Shown here: piece by piece, positions 8,094-56,391 of the stretch
How the letters are laid out: each line of letters begins with the position of its first letter
How positions within the stretch are numbered: the stretch's first letter is position 1
From: an uncultured Muribaculaceae bacterium
GTDB lineage: Bacteria; Bacillota_I; Bacilli_A; RF39; UBA660
Direction: 5' to 3'
Length of the DNA stretch: 58,238 bases
Assembly: GCA_964447275.1 (NCBI GenBank)
Contig: CAYURI010000005.1
Location: 1 to 58,238, forward strand
Program-made: the position numbers and the translations under genes
Notes under the pieces: generated by a model
Databases searched by the model: none
What the model saw: the letters and a program-made list of their open reading frames with translations, nothing else
Told to the model about the DNA's origin: nothing

Positions 8094-8109
8094 TATTTCC
8101 CGGGAAATA
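8094..8109. promoter_or_regulatory. Noc-binding site (NBS)
   Basis: Exact TATTTCCCGGGAAATA, matching the B. subtilis Noc-binding consensus, inside a 22-bp perfect palindrome 8091-8112. Confidence 0.8.
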
Positions 8110-8116
8110 ATTTTAA

Positions 8117-8132
8117 TGTTTCACGTGAAACA
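8117..8132. other. parS centromere site 2
   Basis: Exact TGTTTCACGTGAAACA consensus. Confidence 0.95.
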
Positions 8133-8170
8133 TAGGTTGATTAAAAAAAAATAAAATGCTATTATTTAGT

Positions 8171-8242
8171 GGTGCAACAAGCCCGTTGATAAATAGTCAG
8201 GACCGGAAGGTAGCAGCTAAATCATTTAAGGCTTGTGTGCAC
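8171..8242 (+). ncRNA. ffs: Small (4.5S-type) signal recognition particle RNA
   Basis: Conserved domain IV GTCAGGACCGGAAGGTAGCAGC closed by GTGCA-ACAAGCC / GGCTTGT-GTGCAC, followed by a T run; TGnTATTAT -10 just upstream. Confidence 0.9.
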
Positions 8243-8262
8243 TTTTTTAAAGGAGTAAAAAA

Positions 8263-8673
8263 ATGATACATCATTATTTTGATATAGCAATAAAAGAATC
8301 TTTAAAAGCTGAGAAAAAAGAAAGTGTACCAATTGGTGCAGTAATAATAAAGGATAATAAAATAATCGCTAAAGCCCATAACATTAATTATAAATCTAAA
8401 AAAGTTATGGATCATGCTGAAATTATATGCATTAAAAAAGCCTCTAAGCTTCTTGGCGACTGGCGATTAACAAATTGTGATATGTATGTTACTTTAGAAC
8501 CTTGTAATATGTGTAAAGAAGTAATTAAGGCATCCAGGATTAGAAATGTTTATTATTTAACTCCACAAAAAGAGCTTGTTTGCAAATCGCAAACAAAGTT
8601 CTTTGCAGTAAAAAACATTAATAGTGAATTAACTGAAAAAAAATTAAAAACTTTCTTTAAAAAAAGAAGATAG
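8263..8673 (+). CDS. tadA: tRNA adenosine(34) deaminase family protein
   Basis: VPIGAVI, HAE, TLEPCNMC zinc-deaminase motifs; next to ffs and dnaX as in Bacilli. Confidence 0.9.
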   Translation: MIHHYFDIAIKESLKAEKKESVPIGAVIIKDNKIIAKAHNINYKSKKVMDHAEIICIKKASKLLGDWRLTNCDMYVTLEPCNMCKEVIKASRIRNVYYLTPQKELVCKSQTKFFAVKNINSELTEKKLKTFFKKRR

Positions 8674-8713
8674 AAAATAAAATTATGATATAATTAATTC
8701 AGTGGGTGGGAAC

Positions 8714-10300
8714 ATGGAATATAAAGTTTTATATCGAAAATATCGTCCAGCCAGTTTTGGCGAAATCGTTGGACAAGATTATATTATAAACATTTTAAAA
8801 AAATCGATTATAGGCAACAAATTATCGCATGCTTATCTTTTTTCTGGGCCAAGAGGAACAGGTAAAACTAGTACAGCAAAGGTTTTTGCCAAAGCAATTA
8901 ATTGCGAGAACAATGAAAATGGTGAGCCTTGTAATAAATGTTCGTCTTGTATAGAATTTGATAATAGCCCAGATATTATTGAGATTGATGCTGCGTCAAA
9001 TAATGGGGTTGATGAGATAAGAGAACTTAGGAATAATATTAAACTCGTTCCTGCATTATCTAAATACAAAGTTTATATTATTGATGAAGTTCACATGTTG
9101 TCAATCGGAGCTTTTAATGCTTTATTAAAAACACTGGAAGAACCACCGGCACACATTATATTTATTTTAGCGACAACTGATGCTCAAAAAATCCCTGTTA
9201 CGGTTGTTTCTAGGTGTCAAAGATTTGATTTTCACCAGTTAAGTGTGGATAGAATATCAGAATATTTAATAAAGGTTTGCGAATTAGAAGGAATAAAAGC
9301 CGCTAAAGAAGCAACTGATGAAATAGCATATCTAAGTGATGGGGCAATGAGAGACGCCCTGGGATTATTAGATCAAATATTAGGATTAGTTAACAACGAG
9401 CTAACAATAAAAGATGTTGAAGGAATAATAAAAACCGTTTCTATGCAAAAACTTGAAGAGCTTTATGGTGCTCTTTATAATAATGACCCATTAATGATTT
9501 CGACAATTGTTAATAATGTTGAAAAAGATGGTTATGATTTTACTTCTTTTGTTAATAAATTAGTTAAGTTTTTAAGAGATAAAGCTCTTTTGATAAAAAA
9601 AGGAGACTTAAATAGCAAAATTAGCTTTACTAAAATAAAAAATTTGGTATTTAACTTAAATAAGATTCTATATAATAGCAAAACTGAAATTAGTCCATTT
9701 TTATTATTAGAAATGGAACTTTTAGATAATACCAGTGAAGAAGATTTAAAAGTAGCTTCGCCAGAAAATTTGGTAGAAGAAGTAAAACCAAAAGCAGTGG
9801 AGCAAAATGCTGAAAAACATGAAGAGGATCTATTGTTAATTGACGACTCAATAAAAAAAATTAGAATAAATAATTGCTTCGCCAAAGCTAATAAAGAGAA
9901 TCTTAATTTAAATAAAAAAACTTGGCTTGATTTCATAAATTATGTTGCAGAAAATGATTATAAATTGTGTGGGTTTGTTGTTGATAGTCAAGTTGCTGCG
10001 GCTTCCGATGCTTATCTTTTAATAACTTGCAGTAGTGATAGCCAAGCAGCCTTGTTTAATAAAAATAAAGAAAAAATTGAAAAAGCTTATTTAGAGTTTT
10101 CTAAAGAGAAGTATTTGTTGGTTCTCTTAACAAATGAAGAATGGGAAAGCTGTAAAACCAAGTACATAGAAGACAAAAAAAACAATATAGTTTATGAAAT
10201 TATTGAAGAAGAAAAGCCTAAGAAAAAAAATATTGCTGAAACTAAAATTGGTAAAATGGCTTATAAAATATTCGATGAAAAAAATATAAAAATACAGTAA
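8714..10300 (+). CDS. dnaX: DNA polymerase III subunit gamma/tau
   Basis: LYRKYRP, GPRGTGKT, EIDAASNNGVDEIR, IIDEVHML, SRCQRF. Start set at ATG 8714. Confidence 0.97.
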   Translation: MEYKVLYRKYRPASFGEIVGQDYIINILKKSIIGNKLSHAYLFSGPRGTGKTSTAKVFAKAINCENNENGEPCNKCSSCIEFDNSPDIIEIDAASNNGVDEIRELRNNIKLVPALSKYKVYIIDEVHMLSIGAFNALLKTLEEPPAHIIFILATTDAQKIPVTVVSRCQRFDFHQLSVDRISEYLIKVCELEGIKAAKEATDEIAYLSDGAMRDALGLLDQILGLVNNELTIKDVEGIIKTVSMQKLEELYGALYNNDPLMISTIVNNVEKDGYDFTSFVNKLVKFLRDKALLIKKGDLNSKISFTKIKNLVFNLNKILYNSKTEISPFLLLEMELLDNTSEEDLKVASPENLVEEVKPKAVEQNAEKHEEDLLLIDDSIKKIRINNCFAKANKENLNLNKKTWLDFINYVAENDYKLCGFVVDSQVAAASDAYLLITCSSDSQAALFNKNKEKIEKAYLEFSKEKYLLVLLTNEEWESCKTKYIEDKKNNIVYEIIEEEKPKKKNIAETKIGKMAYKIFDEKNIKIQ

Positions 10301-18868: not shown

Positions 18869-19405
18869 ATGACTAATAAAGTGTTAGATTTCTTTAAAAT
18901 AATGTTAAAAGTCTTTTTAGTTACTTTTGCTGTTTTAATTGTTCAAAATAGCTCAAGAAAAGTTGAAAATAGAGTAGAGAATGTTAATCTAAATAAAACA
19001 TTAGACTTAGCAGCTATGGCTAGATCGACATCAACAATATATGAGGAAGAAGAAATTCTTAAAGTGATTGTTGGCGACTTAACCGGTTATGCCGCTGATT
19101 GCCCAAAATGTACAGGCTTTTTGGGTTGTAAACCTTATACTGATGTTAGAGATAAAAGAACAACTTATGAGGATAAGACTTATGGAACAGTAAGAATTGT
19201 TGCTGCTTCTCCTAAAAACTTAAAATGTGGTAGTATTATTACTTTTACATCTTTAAGGGTATCTTCTGATCCAGTTGTTGCCATTGTCCTAGATCGAGGA
19301 GTAACGGGAACTAGTTTAGATTTACTTACTGAGTCGCAATCTTTTGCAGCTAAGAGCATTGGCCGAAGCGAGATTGCTTATACAGTGCTAAGAGAAGGAT
19401 GGTAA
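18869..19405 (+). CDS. Membrane-anchored 3D/RlpA-like domain protein (positional YabE homolog)
   Basis: N-terminal hydrophobic helix; LTGY, VAASP..LKCGSII, LDRG..G..LDLL resemble the 3D fold; lies between tatD and rsmA like yabE. Confidence 0.65.
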   Translation: MTNKVLDFFKIMLKVFLVTFAVLIVQNSSRKVENRVENVNLNKTLDLAAMARSTSTIYEEEEILKVIVGDLTGYAADCPKCTGFLGCKPYTDVRDKRTTYEDKTYGTVRIVAASPKNLKCGSIITFTSLRVSSDPVVAIVLDRGVTGTSLDLLTESQSFAAKSIGRSEIAYTVLREGW

Positions 19406-20230: not shown

Positions 20231-20284
20231 TTGTTTAAAATTGATATAAACTATAATTAGTAAATTGTGAGAAGGAGTGTTACT

Positions 20285-20590
20285 ATGGAAATTACAGCAG
20301 TCAGCGTACGTAAAATCGAAAAAGAAGGTTCTAGAATGAAAGGCATTGCATCAGTTACTTTAGATGATTCATTTGCTGTTCATGATATTAGAATTATCGA
20401 AGGAGATAATGGTTTGTTCATCGCTATGCCAAGTAGAAAAACAGCTACAGGTGGTTATAGAGATATCGCTCATCCAATTAATCCAGATGTTAGAAAAAAA
20501 TTCCAAGAAGCGATTCTTGAAGAATATAACAACACAGAATATGTACCTAGCGAAAGAAAACCAGAACCAGAAACTGAAACAGAAGAATAA
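20285..20590 (+). CDS. spoVG: SpoVG family RNA-binding regulator
   Basis: [49 protein letters not shown]. Start moved to ATG 20285 after GAAGGAG. Confidence 0.97.
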
Positions 20591-20699
20591 TAAAGCCTTA
20601 TGGCTTTTTTCTTTTAGTCAATCTTATGTCTATAAAACATAAAAGATTGAAAAAAAAGTTAAAAGATAATATAATCATCTATATAATAGGTGGTGAATT

Positions 20700-21146: not shown

Positions 21147-23486
21147 ATGGGAAAGCCTGATTTTTGGGGTAGTCTTTTTGTCACCAAAAGAGATGGAAAG
21201 AAAGTAAATTTTAAAGGAGAAAAGATCGCTGTAGCAATCAAAAAAGGTTTTGACAGCGTTGAGAATGAAGCTTATAGCGAAGAAGATATAAATAAAGTTT
21301 ATCTTAAAGTTTTAGAGACCATTGAAAAAGATTTTGAAGGTCAAAAAGAAATTGGTATTGAAGACATTCAAAATATTATCGAAAGAGAATTACGAAGTCT
21401 TAATTATAACGATGTCTTTGTATCTTTTTCAGAGTATAGAGAAAGACGCAGACTTTCACGTGAAAACTTTATGGCTAAACAACATAAGCTAGTTAGAGCT
21501 ATTGAGCAATTAAGTTTGAAAGATGCTAGTGATGCTGATGCCAAAAGAGAAAATGCCAATATTGATGGCGACACTGCAATGGGCACTATGCTTCAATTTG
21601 GTAGTACAGTATCAAGAGAATTCACTAAGTCATATTTAATGGAAGATAGATTTTCGGCTGCTCATGATGATGGCAGTATTCACGTTCATGATATGGATTT
21701 TTATCCAATGGGAACAACAACTTGTACACAAATAGATTTAAATAATTTATTTAAAAATGGATTTTCTACTGGCCATGGCTTTTTAAGAGAACCTAACGAT
21801 ATAACAAGCTATGCTGCTTTAGCAGCCATTGCTATCCAAGCTAATCAAAATGATCAGCACGGTGGGCAAAGTTTACCAGCATTTGATTTCTTTATGGCAC
21901 CAGGAGTTGTTAAAACGTTTAAAAAACAATTAAAGTATTTAATCTATGATTTATTAGATGTATCTGGATTTTTAAATTTTATTAATTTTAGTCAAATCGA
22001 AAAAGAGATTTCTAAAATAACAACGATCGATTTTGACATTTCTAATTTTGATAAATATGCTAAAGAGTCTAGTCAAGTTATTAAAATATTTAGAAGAGCT
22101 TATGAAAAAGCAATTCAAAAAACTGATAAAGCCACTAACCAAGCGATGGAAGCTTTTGTTCATAATTTGAATACAATGCATTCTAGGGCTGGGGCCCAAG
22201 TACCATTTAGCTCAGTAAATTTAGGAACCGATTCATCTAGCGAAGGAAGAATGGTTATAAAAAACTTTTTGTTAGCAACTGAATCTGGTCTTGGTAAAAA
22301 CGAAACACCAATTTTCCCAATTTCGATTTTTAAAGTCAAAGAAGGCATTAACTATAATCCAGGCGATCCTAGTTATGATTTATTTAGACTAGCTTGCCGT
22401 GTTTCAGCTAAAAGATTGTTTCCTAATTTCTCATTCATAGATGCCCCATTTAACTTGGCAACCTATAAACCAGGAGACTATCGTACTGAAGTTGCTTATA
22501 TGGGATGTCGCACTAGGGTACTCGCCAATGTTGTTGATAAGGAAAAAGCGATAACTCCAGGAAGAGGCAACTTATCATTTACTTCTATTAACTTACCAAG
22601 GATTGGTATTAAACATGGGATGGTTAATGGCGGGAAGACTAATATAAAAGCTTTTTACAAAGAACTTGATGAGGTTATGGATCTTGTTAGGGATCAATTA
22701 CTGCAAAGATTAAAATTTCAAAGTAATAAAAGAGTATATAACGCTCCATTCTTAATGGGCCAAGGAGTTTGGATTGATTCTAATAAATTAAAACCAAATG
22801 ATAAAGTAAAAAAAATATTGGTTCATGGGACACTTTCTATTGGCTTTATTGGATTAGCTGAGACTTTAAAAGCTTTAATCGATAAACATCATGGGGAAAG
22901 CGAAGAAGCTCAAACATTAGGCTTAGAGATTATTAGTCATATGCGTAAAAGATGTGATTTGTATGCTAGAGAAAATAACTTAAACTTTACCTTACTTGCT
23001 ACTCCAGCGGAAGGATTAAGCGGAAGATTTACGGCTATTGATAAATCAATATATGGCATAATACCAGGAATAACTGATAAAGAGTATTACACAAATTCGT
23101 TTCATGTTCCAGTATATTACAACACAACTATTGAACACAAAATAAAAACAGAAGCGCCATATCATGCTTTAACAAACGCTGGCCATATTAGTTATATTGA
23201 ACTTGATGGTGATCCTAGCGATAATATTGATGCTTTTGAAAAAATTGTTAGATTAATGAAAGAAACTGGTATGGGTTACGGAGCTGTTAACCATCCGGTT
23301 GATAGAGATCCAATATGTGGGTTCACAGGAGTTATTGGTGATCAATGCCCAGGATGTGGTAGAAAAGAATCAGATGGGGTAAAATTCGATCGTATTAGAA
23401 GAATAACGGGATATTTAGTTGGAACAGTAGACCGTTTCAATAATAGTAAAAGGGCAGAAGAAAGAGATCGTGTAAAACACACTTAA
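21147..23486 (+). CDS. nrdD: Anaerobic (class III) ribonucleoside-triphosphate reductase with ATP cone
   Basis: VTKRDG ATP cone, HVHDMD, TTTCTQ, MGCRT, TPAEGLSGRF, CxxC pairs and glycyl radical loop RITGYL. Confidence 0.97.
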   Translation: MGKPDFWGSLFVTKRDGKKVNFKGEKIAVAIKKGFDSVENEAYSEEDINKVYLKVLETIEKDFEGQKEIGIEDIQNIIERELRSLNYNDVFVSFSEYRERRRLSRENFMAKQHKLVRAIEQLSLKDASDADAKRENANIDGDTAMGTMLQFGSTVSREFTKSYLMEDRFSAAHDDGSIHVHDMDFYPMGTTTCTQIDLNNLFKNGFSTGHGFLREPNDITSYAALAAIAIQANQNDQHGGQSLPAFDFFMAPGVVKTFKKQLKYLIYDLLDVSGFLNFINFSQIEKEISKITTIDFDISNFDKYAKESSQVIKIFRRAYEKAIQKTDKATNQAMEAFVHNLNTMHSRAGAQVPFSSVNLGTDSSSEGRMVIKNFLLATESGLGKNETPIFPISIFKVKEGINYNPGDPSYDLFRLACRVSAKRLFPNFSFIDAPFNLATYKPGDYRTEVAYMGCRTRVLANVVDKEKAITPGRGNLSFTSINLPRIGIKHGMVNGGKTNIKAFYKELDEVMDLVRDQLLQRLKFQSNKRVYNAPFLMGQGVWIDSNKLKPNDKVKKILVHGTLSIGFIGLAETLKALIDKHHGESEEAQTLGLEIISHMRKRCDLYARENNLNFTLLATPAEGLSGRFTAIDKSIYGIIPGITDKEYYTNSFHVPVYYNTTIEHKIKTEAPYHALTNAGHISYIELDGDPSDNIDAFEKIVRLMKETGMGYGAVNHPVDRDPICGFTGVIGDQCPGCGRKESDGVKFDRIRRITGYLVGTVDRFNNSKRAEERDRVKHT

Positions 23487-23487
23487 G

Positions 23488-24036
23488 ATGATTACTTTAT
23501 ATTTAGCTGCTCCGATTGAAGGAGATAGTATTGTTAATGGCGAAGGCCTACGTACGGTTATTTGGTTTCAAGGCTGTCCTCATCATTGCCCAGGATGCCA
23601 CAATCCAGAATCGCACGCGTTTAAAAAAGGAGTAAAATCTGATACAACAAAGGTTATTGAAGAAATAGCCAAACTTAAAAATCAAGATGGAATAACATTT
23701 TCTGGTGGAGAACCAATGAGTCAGCCAAAGGCTCTTTTAGAGATAGCTAAGTATGCCAAAAGTCAAAAAATGAACGTATGGAGCTATTCTGGCTATACTT
23801 ATGAAGCTTTATTAGAAATGGCTAAAGAAAATGAAATATATGATGAAATTTTAAAGACTATTGATGTCTTAGTTGATGGACCATTTATATTAGAGCAAAG
23901 GAGTCTCAACTTAAAATTTAGAGGATCTAGAAATCAAAGAATTATTGATGTTAAGAAATCTCTAAAAGCTAATAAAATAGTTTTAATTCAAAAATATAAA
24001 AAAGAAAAACAAATAAAGAGTACTATAAAAGATTAA
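23488..24036 (+). CDS. nrdG: Anaerobic RNR activating radical SAM enzyme
   Basis: GCPHHCPGCHNP (CX3CX2C), GITFSGGEP, DVLVDGPF, FRGSRNQR. Confidence 0.96.
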   Translation: MITLYLAAPIEGDSIVNGEGLRTVIWFQGCPHHCPGCHNPESHAFKKGVKSDTTKVIEEIAKLKNQDGITFSGGEPMSQPKALLEIAKYAKSQKMNVWSYSGYTYEALLEMAKENEIYDEILKTIDVLVDGPFILEQRSLNLKFRGSRNQRIIDVKKSLKANKIVLIQKYKKEKQIKSTIKD

Positions 24037-24091
24037 ATAGTACTTTTATTTTACCTAAAAAAAATATATAATAAACAACTAAGGAGAGTCT

Positions 24092-24730
24092 ATGATAAAG
24101 AAGTATTACGTTAATAATTTAGAATTAGAAATAAATGATAATGAAATAACTTCAGTAGTTAGTTCTTCATGTTGTTTTGTTATAAAAGCTTTAAAAGAAA
24201 AATATCATTTAAATATTGTTTCTAATATTTTTAAAGAAAACGAAAAATTAGTAAAAGTGATGGTTCCTAATTCTAAAAAAAGTATTGAAGTAATAAAACT
24301 TTTAGATATTGAAAATTTACTAGAACTTAAATATAAGGACTTAGGTATTGAAGAAAAAGTAAAAGTAATGATAGCTACTCATTTAGTTAGTCCAAATGAA
24401 GTAATTGTTTTTGATGATGTTTTATCTTATCTAAATAATGATATAAAAAATAAAATAATTAAGTACTTAAAGACTAAAAAGATAACTTTAATAAATTTTA
24501 CTTCTGACATTGAGGAAACTTTATTAGGTGAAAACTTAATTGTTTTAGATAATAATCAAATAATTTTATGTGGCAAAACATTGGAAGTATTAAAGAATGA
24601 AAAAATATTAAAAGATCTAGGTATTTATTTACCTTTTATTGTCGACTTATCTATTCAGCTAAACTTATATAAACTAATAAGTAAAATATATATTGATAAT
24701 AAAAAATTAATAGGTGATTTATGGAAATAA
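24092..24730 (+). CDS. Degenerate EcfA1-like ABC ATPase (catalytic motifs lost)
   Basis: Signature, Walker B and H-switch regions recognisable but altered (LGIEEK, VFDDVLSYLN, FTSDIEE); C-terminus LGIYLPFIVDL...LIGDLW is EcfA1-like; no Walker A. Confidence 0.75.
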   Translation: MIKKYYVNNLELEINDNEITSVVSSSCCFVIKALKEKYHLNIVSNIFKENEKLVKVMVPNSKKSIEVIKLLDIENLLELKYKDLGIEEKVKVMIATHLVSPNEVIVFDDVLSYLNNDIKNKIIKYLKTKKITLINFTSDIEETLLGENLIVLDNNQIILCGKTLEVLKNEKILKDLGIYLPFIVDLSIQLNLYKLISKIYIDNKKLIGDLWK

Positions 24731-25497
24731 TTTTTGATAATCCCAGCCTAATATTAAAAAGTGAATTTATTACCGTTTTATCAGGTGATAAAACTAAAGA
24801 ACTAATTCCAGAATCGTTAATGGGATTTAAGAAACTAAGTGTCGGCCAAATCTCTTTACTTGATAGAGTGATTACAAAAGAGACTAAAGACTTTCGTTTT
24901 TTCCAATCGCAAATTGGTTATGTGTTTTTAAACCCAGAAGAGTTTTTAACAAATAAAACGATAAAAGAGGAAATTGCTTTTGGGTTAAAGTATTATGGCT
25001 TTAATCAAATTAATAAAAGAATTAATGATGCTTTAGACTTGGTTGATTTAAATGAGTCTTTCTTAAATAAAAAGTCTTTAGAAGTAGATTTGAATATTCA
25101 AAAAAAAGTTATGCTAGCAGCTGTTTTAGCTATTGAGCCAAAGATCTTAATTTTAAATTATATTGAGCATGGTTTAAATATAAAAGAGCAAAAAGCATTA
25201 AAGAAGCTTCTTAAAAATTTAAGAAAGATGAAAAATATGTTTATTATTATTGTTAGTAATAATAGTAATTTCTTTTTTGATATAGCTGATCGAATTATTG
25301 TTCTTAACGATAATAAAGTATTATTCGATGATGATGAGGAATTATTTTATAAAGATAAATCAAATAAGTATTTAAATACTCCACCAATCATTGAGTTTAT
25401 AAAAATAGCTTTAAATAGGAATATTAAACTGGATAAAACTAATGATATAAAAGAATTAATGAAAGATATATACCGAAAAGTTAATGAAAAGCGTTAA
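24721..25497 (+). CDS. Degenerate EcfA2-like ABC ATPase (catalytic motifs lost)
   Basis: IGYVFLNPEEFL, TIKEEIAFG, KKVMLAAVLAIEPKILILNY resemble EcfA2; Walker A, LSGGQ, DE and His are all replaced. Confidence 0.78.
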   Translation: MEIIFDNPSLILKSEFITVLSGDKTKELIPESLMGFKKLSVGQISLLDRVITKETKDFRFFQSQIGYVFLNPEEFLTNKTIKEEIAFGLKYYGFNQINKRINDALDLVDLNESFLNKKSLEVDLNIQKKVMLAAVLAIEPKILILNYIEHGLNIKEQKALKKLLKNLRKMKNMFIIIVSNNSNFFFDIADRIIVLNDNKVLFDDDEELFYKDKSNKYLNTPPIIEFIKIALNRNIKLDKTNDIKELMKDIYRKVNEKR

Positions 25498-25512
25498 ATA
25501 TAGCGATTTTGG

Positions 25513-25541
25513 TTGACTTTTTTCATTAATTTAAATATAAT
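25513..25541 (+). promoter_or_regulatory. SigA promoter of rplM-rpsI
   Basis: TTGACT-17 nt-TATAAT. Confidence 0.85.
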
Positions 25542-25544
25542 TTT

Positions 25545-25612
25545 TACTGGTACATTTATTTACTGTTTTTTTATTCCTCGTGGGAAGATGAGTAAAAGAA
25601 AGTAAAGAAAGG
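25545..25612 (+). promoter_or_regulatory. Possible L13 ribosomal leader
   Basis: 5' UTR of rplM with complementary TTTACT / AGTAAA segments around CCTCGTGGGAAG; recognised only loosely. Confidence 0.35.
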
Positions 25613-25619
25613 GATTATT

Positions 25620-26051
25620 ATGAATACATTTATGCAAAAAAAAGAAACTGTTGAACGTAAATGGTATGTTATTGATGCGGAAGATAAGAGTTTAGGTAGA
25701 GTTGCTTCTAAAGCTGCACAAGTTTTACGTGGCAAACACAAACCAACTTTCACACCACATATCGATTGCGGTGACTATGTAATTATTATTAACGCTGATA
25801 AAGTTAATTTAACCGGCGATAAGCTAAACAAAAAGATTTACTATGATCATAGTGGATATACTGGTGGTTTAAGAGAAAGAACTGCTAAAATTATGGTTAG
25901 TGACTATCCAGAAGAAATGGTTGAAAGAGCAGTAAAAGGAATGCTTCCAAAGGGAAGACTTGGTAGACAAACATATAAGAAATTATTTGTTTATAAAGGT
26001 AGTGAACACAATCACATTGCTCAAAAGCCAGAAGTTCTAGAAGTTAAGTAG
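25620..26051 (+). CDS. rplM: 50S ribosomal protein L13
   Basis: [37 protein letters not shown]. Confidence 0.98.
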
Positions 26052-26059
26052 GAGGATTT

Positions 26060-26479
26060 ATGAAAAAAACAGAAAGTTTTTTTGGCGTAGGACGCCGTAA
26101 ACGTTCAATTGCGCAAGTAAGATTAACTCCAGGTAAAGGAAATATTATTGTTAATGGGAAACCAGTAGAAGAATATATGCCTTTCGCGGTATTAGTTATG
26201 GATTTAAAACAACCATTAGTTGTTACTAAAAATGAAAACAAATTTGATATTGAAGTAACAGTTAAAGGTGGTGGCTTTTCTGGTCAAACAGGAGCTATTA
26301 GATTAGGTATCACAAGAGCTTTAATGGCTTATGATGCTGATACTGACCAATCAAGTAGTGATTCATATCGTAAAATATTAAAAGTAAATGGTTTTGTTAC
26401 AAGAGACCCTAGAGTTAAAGAACGTAAAAAATATGGTCTTAAAAAAGCTCGTAGAGCACCACAATTCAGTAAACGTTAA
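26060..26479 (+). CDS. rpsI: 30S ribosomal protein S9
   Basis: [47 protein letters not shown]. Confidence 0.98.
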
Positions 26480-26484
26480 TTTTT

Positions 26485-26512
26485 ACACCTTGCAAATGCA
26501 AGGTGTTTTTTT
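26485..26512 (+). terminator. Intrinsic terminator after rpsI
   Basis: ACACCTTGCA-AA-TGCAAGGTGT plus T run. Confidence 0.88.
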
Positions 26513-26613: not shown

Positions 26614-27558
26614 ATGATAAAGACATTTAAGACATTAGATGAACAAATAGCGATATTAAGAGATAAAGGATTAGTTATAGAAGATGAAGCGACTGCTAAA
26701 GATATTTTGCTTCGTGAAAATTATTTCTTTATTAGTGGCTATAGGCATTTGTTTTTATTAGATCCTTCAAAAAGAAACTTTATTCCCAATACTAATTTTA
26801 GAGAACTTTATGGCATGTTTAATTTTGACCGTCAAGTAAGAAATATTATTTTTAAAAATTTATTAATTATTGAGAATAATATTAAAAGTATTTTTGCTTA
26901 TCAGATTGCTAAAAAGTATGGTTATAAAGAAGAGGATTATTTAAATATTAAAAATTTTAATACTGATCCAGAAAAAGCTAACCAACTAGACGATCTAATT
27001 AAGAAAATGAAACGTCAAATAAGAGTTAATGGTACTCAGCATACAGCAACAAGCCACTATATAACAAATTATGGTTATATTCCGCCATGGGTTGTAGTTA
27101 AAGTTTTATCGTTTGGGATTGTTAGCGAGTTATTTACGGTTTTAAAAAAAGAAGATCAAAACGATATTGCTAGTATATATGGGATGTCTCCTGATGATTT
27201 ATTAGTTTATTTACCAATATTAGCTAACTATCGTAATTTATGCGCTCATGAAGATATTTTATATAACCATAAAACTCAACGTCAAATTAATGATACTAAG
27301 TTTCATGCTTTACTTAATATTCCTACTAGTGATGGTGAATATATTTATGGCAAAGATGACTTAATGGCTTTAATAATTATTATGAAATACTTACTAAGAG
27401 AAGATGATTTCACATTATTAATAAATGAACTTGATTATGAAATTAGTATATTAGAAGGCAAATTAAAAGTTATAAACATTGAAAAAGTTCTTAATAAAAT
27501 GGGCATACCTTTAAATTATCAAGAATTATCAAGGATGGAGAAGAGAAATGAAGAATAA
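26614..27558 (+). CDS. Abi family (AbiD/AbiF-like) HEPN protein
   Basis: FKTLDEQIAILRDKGL, ENYFFISGY, FDRQVR...LLIIE, PPWVVV..LSFG and HEPN motif RNLCAH. Confidence 0.88.
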   Translation: MIKTFKTLDEQIAILRDKGLVIEDEATAKDILLRENYFFISGYRHLFLLDPSKRNFIPNTNFRELYGMFNFDRQVRNIIFKNLLIIENNIKSIFAYQIAKKYGYKEEDYLNIKNFNTDPEKANQLDDLIKKMKRQIRVNGTQHTATSHYITNYGYIPPWVVVKVLSFGIVSELFTVLKKEDQNDIASIYGMSPDDLLVYLPILANYRNLCAHEDILYNHKTQRQINDTKFHALLNIPTSDGEYIYGKDDLMALIIIMKYLLREDDFTLLINELDYEISILEGKLKVINIEKVLNKMGIPLNYQELSRMEKRNEE

Positions 27559-43823: not shown

Positions 43824-44483
43824 ATGAAGATATTAGAGTTAAAAGATGTTTGTTATAAATATGAAGATACTAATAAAGATGACTATGTTTTGAAAAACAT
43901 TAATTATAGTTTTGATTTAGGTAAAACATATGCTATTAAAGGTAAAAGTGGTAGTGGTAAAACAACTTTATTATCACTTATATCTGGTTTAGAAAAATGT
44001 AAAGAAGGTAAGATTATTTATGATGGGAAAGATTTAAATAAAATGGATTTAGATAAATATCGTAGCAAATCTATTGGGATAGTCTTCCAATCATATAACT
44101 TATTACCGCATTTAACAGCAATTGAAAACATCGTTTTATCAATGGATATAAGCAAATTAAAAATTAAAGATAAAGTAAAAGAAGCCATTAGGTTGTTAGA
44201 AAGAGTTGGTTTAACAGAAAAACAGGGTAAAAGAAGAGTCTTAAAATTATCTGGTGGTGAACAGCAAAGAGTGGCAATAGCAAGAAGTCTGTCTTATAAT
44301 CCAGATATTATTTTAGCTGATGAACCAACTGGTAACTTGGACGAACAAACTGAAAATGATATTATAAAAATATTAACTGATTTAGCAAAGCACGAAAATA
44401 AATGCATTATAATTGTAACCCATTCTACAAATGTGGCTGGCAAAGTTGATACTATTTATGAATTAGTAAAAAAGATAGCTTAA
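43824..44483 (+). CDS. ABC transporter ATP-binding protein (LolD/MacB type)
   Basis: GKSGSGKTT, VFQSYNL, LSGGEQQR, LADEPTGNLD, VTHS, all intact. Confidence 0.96.
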   Translation: MKILELKDVCYKYEDTNKDDYVLKNINYSFDLGKTYAIKGKSGSGKTTLLSLISGLEKCKEGKIIYDGKDLNKMDLDKYRSKSIGIVFQSYNLLPHLTAIENIVLSMDISKLKIKDKVKEAIRLLERVGLTEKQGKRRVLKLSGGEQQRVAIARSLSYNPDIILADEPTGNLDEQTENDIIKILTDLAKHENKCIIIVTHSTNVAGKVDTIYELVKKIA

Positions 44484-56262: not shown

Positions 56263-56269
56263 ACTAATG

Positions 56270-56372
56270 AAACGAACGTACCATAGACAGTAGGGGATAA
56301 CAAAATCTTAATAATCCTACCGAGGGAAAAGTAATAATATTTTTATGCTTTCCCTAATGGGAAAGTTTTTTT
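56270..56372 (+). promoter_or_regulatory. L10 leader with attenuator terminator
   Basis: TAGACAGTAGG...CCTACCGAGG core, then CTTTCCC-TAAT-GGGAAAG plus T run. Confidence 0.88.
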
Positions 56373-56391
56373 ATAAAAAAGGAGGAGTAAC

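Follow-up and report, generated by a model that had tools for sequence, protein, structure and literature searches.

A pseudoenzyme derivative of the EcfA1/EcfA2 ATPase pair encoded without an adjoining ecfT in uncultured Bacilli

Two overlapping genes directly upstream of rplM-rpsI encode homologues of EcfA1 and EcfA2, the ATPase subunits of group-II energy-coupling factor (ECF) transporters, in which all ATPase motifs have been altered while the predicted fold is preserved and the gene for the membrane partner EcfT is missing from the locus. The genes lie in the window, by which we mean the whole stretch of 58,238 nucleotides that was analyzed. The pair is a pseudoenzyme that derives from the ECF ATPases, and the substitution patterns among relatives indicate that it is kept by purifying selection. 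We propose, with slightly better than even confidence, that the two proteins form a nucleotide-free pseudo-ATPase heterodimer that serves as a structural element, adaptor or regulator, independently of ATP turnover and of EcfT.

Firmicutes take up vitamins mainly through ECF transporters, which are pursued as antibiotic targets. To our knowledge, the EcfA pair has been regarded as serving solely to drive EcfT and the S-components. Our search of the full-text literature returned no report of EcfT-less, pseudo-ATPase or fully degenerate EcfAA' pairs, and in a study of B. subtilis from 2026 ecfA1, ecfA2 and ecfT were considered jointly, as a single functional unit.

RESULTS

The pair forms a compact, putatively translationally coupled unit upstream of rplM-rpsI

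ORF1, the EcfA1-derived pseudo-ATPase, spans positions 24092–24730 of the plus strand (212 amino acids), and ORF2, its EcfA2-derived counterpart, spans positions 24721–25497 of the same strand (258 amino acids). Neither frame is interrupted, and the two share 10 nt, the ORF1 stop codon TAA (24728–24730) being located within the ORF2 start region ATGGAAATAA, so that the coordinates agree with an earlier note on this DNA, which had described such an arrangement directly 5′ of rplM-rpsI. By sequence reading, a Shine-Dalgarno sequence, AAGGAGAG, is found on the plus strand at 24081–24088, 3 nt 5′ of the ORF1 ATG at 24092, and another, AGGTGA, at 24712–24717 of the plus strand within the 3′ end of ORF1. 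Because the two frames overlap and the Shine-Dalgarno sequence of ORF2 resides inside ORF1, the arrangement is indicative of translational coupling.

On the 5′ side the pair is preceded by nrdD and nrdG (21147–24036, plus strand). On the 3′ side a spacer of 122 nt (25498–25619, plus strand), comprising a promoter-like element TTGACT-17-TATAAT (25513–25541, plus strand; 79 nt 5′ of rplM) and the rplM leader, separates ORF2 from the conserved neighbours rplM (25620–26051, plus strand) and, 3′ of it, rpsI (26060–26479, plus strand), behind which a terminator-like hairpin is located (26485–26506). As the truA-rplM-rpsI synteny is ancestral in Firmicutes, it is uninformative on the function of the pair. 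The window as a whole has a GC content of about 28% and is origin-proximal, carrying dnaN, recF, gyrBA, the SRP RNA, dnaX, mfd, spoVG, divIC and nrdDG and, further on, the rplKAJL region. DNA identical to the ORF1/ORF2 pair is contained in bioreactor metagenomes, and partial word matches to it occur in metagenomes from wastewater, biofilm and sediment. Two RNA runs with sequence from the window region contained fragments of rplM and rpsI and nothing from the pair.

Both proteins are EcfA homologues by profile, sequence and predicted fold

The best NCBIfam match of ORF1 is TIGR04520 (ECF_ATPase_1; 59.6 bits, cut-off 315), restricted to residues 66–211, and that of ORF2 is TIGR04521 (ECF_ATPase_2; 117.8 bits, cut-off 330); the equivalog cut-offs are hence undershot 5-fold and 3-fold, respectively. 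ORF1 gave no match to the Pfam family ABC_tran, and ORF2 matched PF00005 with 25.9 bits, just above the cut-off of 25. Among proteins of known structure, ORF2 is most similar to EcfA2 (4mki_B, E 2e-21) and the C-terminal 130 residues of ORF1 to EcfA1 (8bmr_A, E 1.6e-10), the latter alignment ending with LWK in ORF1 and LWQ in 8bmr_A. The EcfA1-type C-terminus (...LIGDLWK) is thus present in ORF1.

Monomer models computed with AlphaFold2 from family alignments support the same assignment. The ORF1 model (pLDDT 89.7) retrieves the EcfA1 structures 6zg3_F, 8bms_A and 8bmr_A as top folds in the PDB with TMq values of 0.70–0.79 and superposes on 8bms_A and 8bmr_A with TMq 0.75–0.76, and the ORF2 model (pLDDT 90.6) matches the EcfA2 chains 7nnu_B (TMq 0.89), 5jsz_B (TMq 0.88) and 4mki_B (E 1e-18). 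ORF1 accordingly shows the nucleotide-binding domain (NBD) fold of ABC ATPases with EcfA-type C-terminal helices, and ORF2 an EcfA2-type NBD fold. The EcfA homology assumed in the earlier note is borne out by profiles, PDB matches and predicted folds, and so is its statement that the NBD scaffold and the C-terminal extensions are preserved. Hence, ORF1 and ORF2 are homologues of EcfA1 and EcfA2. Other origins were considered as well: PADLOC returned weak generic ABC-like matches only (mad3, Csn2), and a defence-system origin was rejected. Charge and pI, examined as a hint to nucleic-acid binding, showed no consistent trend across the architectural classes described below.

No ATPase motif is canonical in either protein

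We aligned both ORFs to the near-canonical relatives P0116 and P0016 and read the motif positions from these alignments. Walker A, Q-loop, LSGGQ signature, the D-E of Walker B and the H-switch are canonical in neither protein. In ORF1, the P-loop is absent, VVSSS--CCF standing at the position of GxxGxGKTT, and a deletion has removed the Q-loop and some 35 residues of the helical region; the signature reads LGIEEK, Walker B reads DD (VFDD) and the H-switch position is occupied by serine (TSD). ORF2 carries a P-loop that is two residues shorter (SGD--KTKE), VFLNP at the Q-loop, (V)DLNIQK at the signature, NY (ILILNY) at Walker B and asparagine at the H-switch (VSNN), and it has a conserved, Q-helix-like segment NP[x][DE]FL. 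The motif strings therefore agree with the earlier observation that every ATPase motif is altered in both proteins; the further statement that Walker A is absent holds for ORF1 but goes a little too far for ORF2, in which a vestige of it has been kept. An ABC ATPase encoded elsewhere in the window (43824–44483) served as control and possesses, as previously noted, intact motifs (GKSGSGKTT, LSGGEQ, ILADEP and VTHS; 123 bits to PF00005).

Substitution patterns indicate purifying selection on both genes

At least 10 relatives possess this pair in intact form, with amino-acid identities of 51–97%, which argues against a chance occurrence. In three relatives with a collinear locus, the identities of ORF1 and ORF2 are 77% and 83% (L078), 71% and 74% (L080), and 56% and 64% (L001). 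Against these three, in the same order, dN/dS by the method of Nei and Gojobori amounts to 0.24, 0.21 and 0.16 for ORF1 and to 0.11, 0.10 and 0.24 for ORF2, values comparable to those of ksgA and tatD nearby. For a spurious ORF that overlaps spoVG, 2.6–6.3 was obtained. Low values were likewise obtained for other ecfT-less architectures (0.04–0.11 in class ii and 0.09–0.27 for close pairs of class iii, as defined below). Both genes are intact, and free of frameshifts, in all of the roughly 70 loci whose contig spans them. Values near 1 or frameshifts in relatives had been named beforehand as signs of neutral decay; with dN/dS at 0.10–0.24 and the reading frames intact, the pair is retained and not decaying.

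Within the clade of window-type pairs, the residues now present at altered motif positions do not vary (ITVLSGD.TKE, IGYVFLNP and ILN.IEHGLN), and the C-terminal blocks are the best-conserved part of each protein, with a mean column identity of 0.84–0.91. The C-terminal pattern LPF..DLSIQL.LY...KIY...KL.GDLWK of ORF1 is strongly conserved, and the ORF2 tail DIKELMKDIYRKVNEKR is nearly invariant, with the conserved clade pattern DIKELMKDIYRKVNEK. The pair thus combines lost catalytic residues with a kept fold and with substitution rates that speak for purifying selection, the features by which pseudoenzymes are recognized.

The pair belongs to a wider clade with four architectures

A survey in which one genome per species was scanned with the ORF1 family yielded 69 loci, all from uncultured Bacilli of the gut, the rumen or other habitats. 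The genomes bearing them are labeled Bacilli, Tenericutes, Ca. Coprovivens, Mycoplasma sp. CAG:956, Firmicutes CAG:460 or CAG bins, and their distribution is consistent with the orders RF39, RFN20 and ML615J-28, which have been described as fast-evolving and reductive (PMC10868615). Several related metagenome-assembled genomes bear implausible 'Muribaculaceae' labels.

Four architectures can be distinguished. Class i, with 19 distinct loci, has the order ecfA1 (~262–285 amino acids)-ecfA2 (~253–277)-ecfT (243–251)-truA-rplM-rpsI. At 49 distinct loci ecfT is missing and ecfA2 adjoins truA or rplM: full-length ecfA1-ecfA2 adjoin truA in class ii, a shrunken pair of ~157–213 and 180–210 amino acids adjoins truA in class iii, and in class iv, the type of the window, a pair of 209–212 and 258–267 amino acids adjoins rplM, truA being missing as well. 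The shortest relatives (~160 and 185 amino acids) consist of the core from Walker B to the C-terminus alone, and common to all forms in both subunits are the Walker-B strand, the D-loop, the former H-loop and the C-terminal helices. A canonical LSGGQ occurs at none of the loci in either subunit, including the 19 with ecfT. Class i pairs have kept a single Walker A, mostly in EcfA1 but in EcfA2 at locus L081, and only locus L003 has one in both subunits; the EcfT of these members is itself divergent. Since the class i proteins already have no LSGGQ and mostly one Walker A, ATP-site degeneration probably began while ecfT was still present. The pair is a feature of a wider clade, and the window represents a late stage of this trend.

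An exhaustive profile search returned 571 clusters (50% identity) at E ≤ 1e-30; the 150 clusters listed include full-length and fused forms and at least 12 compact ORF1-like proteins of 209–217 amino acids. The short-class pair of locus L055 was present on wastewater metatranscriptome contigs at a depth similar to that of its rplM-rpsI, although DNA carry-over is possible. Most sources leave homologues of the pair unnamed; in JGI annotations they appear as subunits of molybdate or cobalamin/siderophore ABC ATPases.

Loss of ecfT and of the last Walker A motifs

A group-II ECF module is recognized by ecfT (PF02361, CbiQ) next to ecfA1-ecfA2, an arrangement that the window locus does not show. 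No ORF resembling EcfT/CbiQ or an S-component is present in the 58-kb window, so the earlier report that ecfT does not adjoin the pair stands for the locus and for the window, nor did the flanks of any ecfT-less locus contain an EcfT-like or S-component-like ORF. Small membrane ORFs near short-class pairs were inspected as hidden EcfT or S-component candidates and rejected; they encode 2-TM coiled-coil, DUF421-like and other proteins, none of which matched an EcfT HMM.

The near relative L083 has the order DivIC-nrdD-nrdG-ecfA1-ecfA2-ecfT-truA-rplM-rpsI, that is, the context of the window with two additional genes, and its truA-rplM spacer is homologous to the ORF2-rplM spacer of the window. 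The shared context and spacer point to a clean excision of ecfT-truA in the window lineage. The EcfA2 of L083 already has the same two-residue P-loop deletion as ORF2, from which it would follow that the EcfA1 P-loop and the EcfA2 signature and Walker B were lost after the excision. Across the survey, at least one Walker A is kept in 19/19 ecfT-bearing loci and one in 24/49 ecfT-less loci. Pairs without any Walker A make up none of the 19 ecfT-bearing but 25 of the 49 ecfT-less loci (Fisher p = 3.7e-5, uncorrected for phylogeny). In a rough neighbour-joining tree of TruA, ecfT-less lineages are scattered among ecfT-bearing ones, and this interspersion suggests several independent losses of ecfT with retention of the pair each time.

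To cover EcfT proteins encoded elsewhere, a profile of 10 clade EcfTs was searched against 5.8 billion proteins. Among the 107 EcfT relatives listed, drawn from at most 8000 candidates, none was located on a contig matching one of the ecfT-less contigs in length (about 4 Mb, including one of 1.04 Mb), which is a weak negative result because one or two of the five positive controls were missed, the control contigs L003 (318,033 bp) and L005 (591,557 bp) not being recovered and 3 of 5 being found. All clade-family EcfTs whose context was inspected adjoin ecfA1-ecfA2, with no orphan among them.

DISCUSSION

A pseudo-ATPase heterodimer as proposed explanation

We suggest the following course of events. 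In the ancestor of this clade of fast-evolving uncultured Bacilli, both ATP sites would already have been degenerate, with at most one Walker A. Later, ecfT would have been deleted from the operon in several lineages, in that of the window together with truA, and the remaining nucleotide-binding elements would have eroded after this deletion. Selection still preserves both genes together, in putative translational coupling, and acts on the C-terminal half of each NBD and on the C-terminal helices, which tie EcfA to EcfA' in known structures. It also maintains the new residues of the face that once formed the ATP sandwich and that would have been remodelled to a nucleotide-free surface. The pair would be a constitutive 1:1 EcfA1'/EcfA2' heterodimer held by its conserved C-terminal helices and serving as a non-catalytic structural, adaptor or regulatory module rather than as a transport motor. 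Heterodimerization via the C-termini, lack of nucleotide binding and independence of EcfT are the parts of this proposal that we infer. The earlier note had framed the matter as a pseudo-ATPase pair with either a non-transport role or a role as remnant of ECF uptake; homology, motif loss, fold, absence of a local ecfT and selection all hold, and its two roles enter here as readings of different probability.

The main rival is the latter role, in which the pair is an ATP-independent ECF remnant acting as a static cytoplasmic cap. EcfT and the S-components would in this case be encoded at other sites of the genome, the capped membrane complex could assemble, and the S-components would work by facilitated diffusion. 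Docking of ORF2 to an EcfT-like partner may be conceivable because ORF2 retains the whole NBD fold together with the conserved Q-helix-like segment, and ecfT-bearing members of the clade already combine heavily degenerate sites with a divergent EcfT; the limited sensitivity of the EcfT search elsewhere also speaks in its favour. Such a cap is difficult to reconcile, however, with the precise excision of ecfT from a conserved operon in many lineages, with the position of all inspected clade EcfTs beside ecfA1-ecfA2 and with the ~4 Mb of ecfT-less contigs on which this search of limited sensitivity gave no EcfT match. Moreover, ORF1 has lost the Q-loop and helical segment that forms the coupling-helix groove, the short-class pairs lack the whole N-terminal half, and total loss of Walker A tracks the loss of ecfT. 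We therefore consider a static cap possible but rather unlikely. A cryptic ATPase, in which nucleotide is bound or hydrolyzed by non-canonical residues such as the vestigial GD-KT(K/R) of ORF2, could appeal to the invariance of this P-loop segment in the clade and to the one Walker A kept in sister lineages. It is nevertheless improbable, as the ORF2 P-loop is two residues shorter and ORF1 has none, the Walker B aspartate and the catalytic glutamate of ORF2 are replaced by asparagine and tyrosine, its H-switch histidine is gone, the partner contributes LGIEE as signature, and short-class homologues without any P-loop region are still under selection.

Two further readings dispense with a function of the proteins altogether. 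The ORFs might be kept for downstream expression through coupling or operon architecture, as the overlap of the ecfA2 stop with the truA start in ecfT-less relatives might suggest, but low dN/dS and invariant motifs show that it is the amino-acid sequences that are constrained, and the window lacks truA and provides rplM with a promoter-like element of its own; we hold this to be very improbable. Neutral decay, which would make the ORFs ecfA1/ecfA2 pseudogene remnants that are open by chance, could account for the loss of all catalytic motifs, for scores far below the NCBIfam cut-offs and for the place of the pair among the faster-evolving genes of the neighbourhood. It is refuted by the selection tests and scarcely credible in view of reading frames that have stayed intact in some 70 loci despite a GC content of about 28%, at which stop codons are frequent, of invariant residues, near-invariant C-termini and confident AlphaFold2 folds, and of Shine-Dalgarno sequences with a coupled overlap.

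Beyond the nucleotide-free heterodimer itself, which we prefer, a wider conjecture may be put forward tentatively and with somewhat less than even weight. EcfA1/EcfA2 may possess a second, EcfT-independent function located in the C-terminal half and the helical bundle, which alone would have been retained in RF39/RFN20/ML615J-28-like Bacilli, so that the pair would represent a new family of soluble pseudo-ABC heterodimers (minimally ~160 and 185 amino acids) arising repeatedly after transporter loss.

Since the ATP sites and the local EcfT gene have been lost and selection nonetheless persists in dozens of species, the pair implies either an unrecognized ATP-independent scaffold activity of EcfAA' or ECF membrane parts that work with an inert cap. 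The related genomes provide a natural deletion series of four stages that shows which parts of an NBD dimer matter without catalysis. In addition, automated annotation could inflate the predicted transport capacity of reduced-genome Bacilli from gut and bioreactor, as the transporter labels given to homologues by JGI illustrate.

Comparison with known systems

The closest known system is the group-II EcfA1/EcfA2 pair (PDB 5jsz, 7nnu, 8bmr, 4hlu and 4mki), which provides the best sequence, profile and fold matches. The order of A1 before A2, the overlapping stop and start codons and the place before (ecfT-truA-)rplM-rpsI are shared, as are the EcfA-specific C-terminal helices, including the terminal LWK of EcfA1. 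The window pair differs in that it possesses, as judged from its motifs, no functional ATPase site and no local ecfT, and ORF1 is about 60–70 residues shorter than EcfA1. An opposite subset of the ECF system is found in solitary S-components such as BioY, which work without an ECF module; they are also partial ECF systems, but what they have retained is the membrane S-component, whereas the window has retained the cytoplasmic ATPases.

In the heterodimeric ABC proteins TAP1/2, CFTR and TM287/288, NBD motifs have likewise decayed asymmetrically: one ATP site is degenerate, and one consensus site and the membrane domains have been kept. The ecfT-bearing members of the clade, with their single Walker A, resemble these proteins, whereas in the window pair both sites are dead and the gene for the membrane partner is gone from the locus. 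Two ABC-type NBDs without a transporter domain are also the hallmark of ABCE1/Rli1 and ABC-F proteins, to which the pair is linked by weak generic RLI profile matches; no specific similarity to either was found, and these soluble twin-NBD proteins are active ATPases with intact motifs, fused into one chain and equipped with extra domains.

Divergent EcfT proteins and ATP sites in ecfT-bearing relatives

The EcfT proteins encoded by those relatives that still carry ecfT between ecfA2 and truA are themselves very divergent (e.g. L005:9657–10403 and L012:7359–8102, as well as those of the other loci of this arrangement). Most of them lack a Pfam CbiQ match, and most members carry Lys-Gly in place of Arg-Gly within the conserved coupling-helix motif. 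Taken together, the divergence of EcfT, the scarcity of CbiQ matches and the Lys-Gly motif suggest that the entire ECF module, beyond the ATPases alone, has been remodelled in this clade. The asymmetry between the two ATPases is reciprocal in the ecfT-bearing locus L081 (3411–5756), where the P-loop of EcfA1 is dead and reads GNNND--LI, while EcfA2 retains both GASNSGKS and the Walker B DE. This reciprocity indicates that the predicted surviving ATP site has changed subunit between lineages. Among the best representatives listed from the EcfA1 profile search, proteins of about 580–670 aa with two matched stretches were also found (P0260, P0263, P0264 and others), which presumably are EcfA1–EcfA2 fusions.

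Labels and interrupted genes of the related loci

Several of the metagenome-assembled genomes with the low-GC Bacilli-type operon (L009, L010, L012, L025, L031 and others) bear the title 'uncultured Muribaculaceae bacterium', a label that is probably a placeholder or wrong. In L012, which is ecfT-bearing, truA (8099–8976) is split into two ORFs of 180 and 103 aa; the cause is a frameshift or else a mistake in the assembly. The JGI contig L079 has the same arrangement as the window apart from its broken nrdD (268–2603), which consists of three ORFs of 114, 87 and 446 aa.

Further features of the window

Rfam matches above the gathering score were obtained for the bacterial small SRP RNA (8161–8251) and, ahead of rplJ, for the ribosomal protein L10 leader (56263–56380). 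Between tatD and ksgA, a gene (18869–19405) encodes a 178-aa protein with one predicted transmembrane segment and no Pfam match. The conservation of this protein is very strong: it shares 96% identity with its counterpart in the collinear relative L078, at a dN/dS of 0.036. A 92-aa ORF (20364–20642) that overlaps spoVG (20267–20590) in another frame was rejected as spurious because its dN/dS against relatives is 2.6–6.3, and it served as a negative control.

Downstream of rpsI lies an AbiD/Abi_2-like gene (26614–27558; PADLOC AbiD, 190 bits; Pfam Abi_2). Since its position between rpsI and an HtrA-like protease gene is conserved and it shares 98% identity with the L078 copy at a dN/dS of 0.018, this putative AbiD homolog behaves, by these comparative measures, as a core gene and not as a mobile defence gene.
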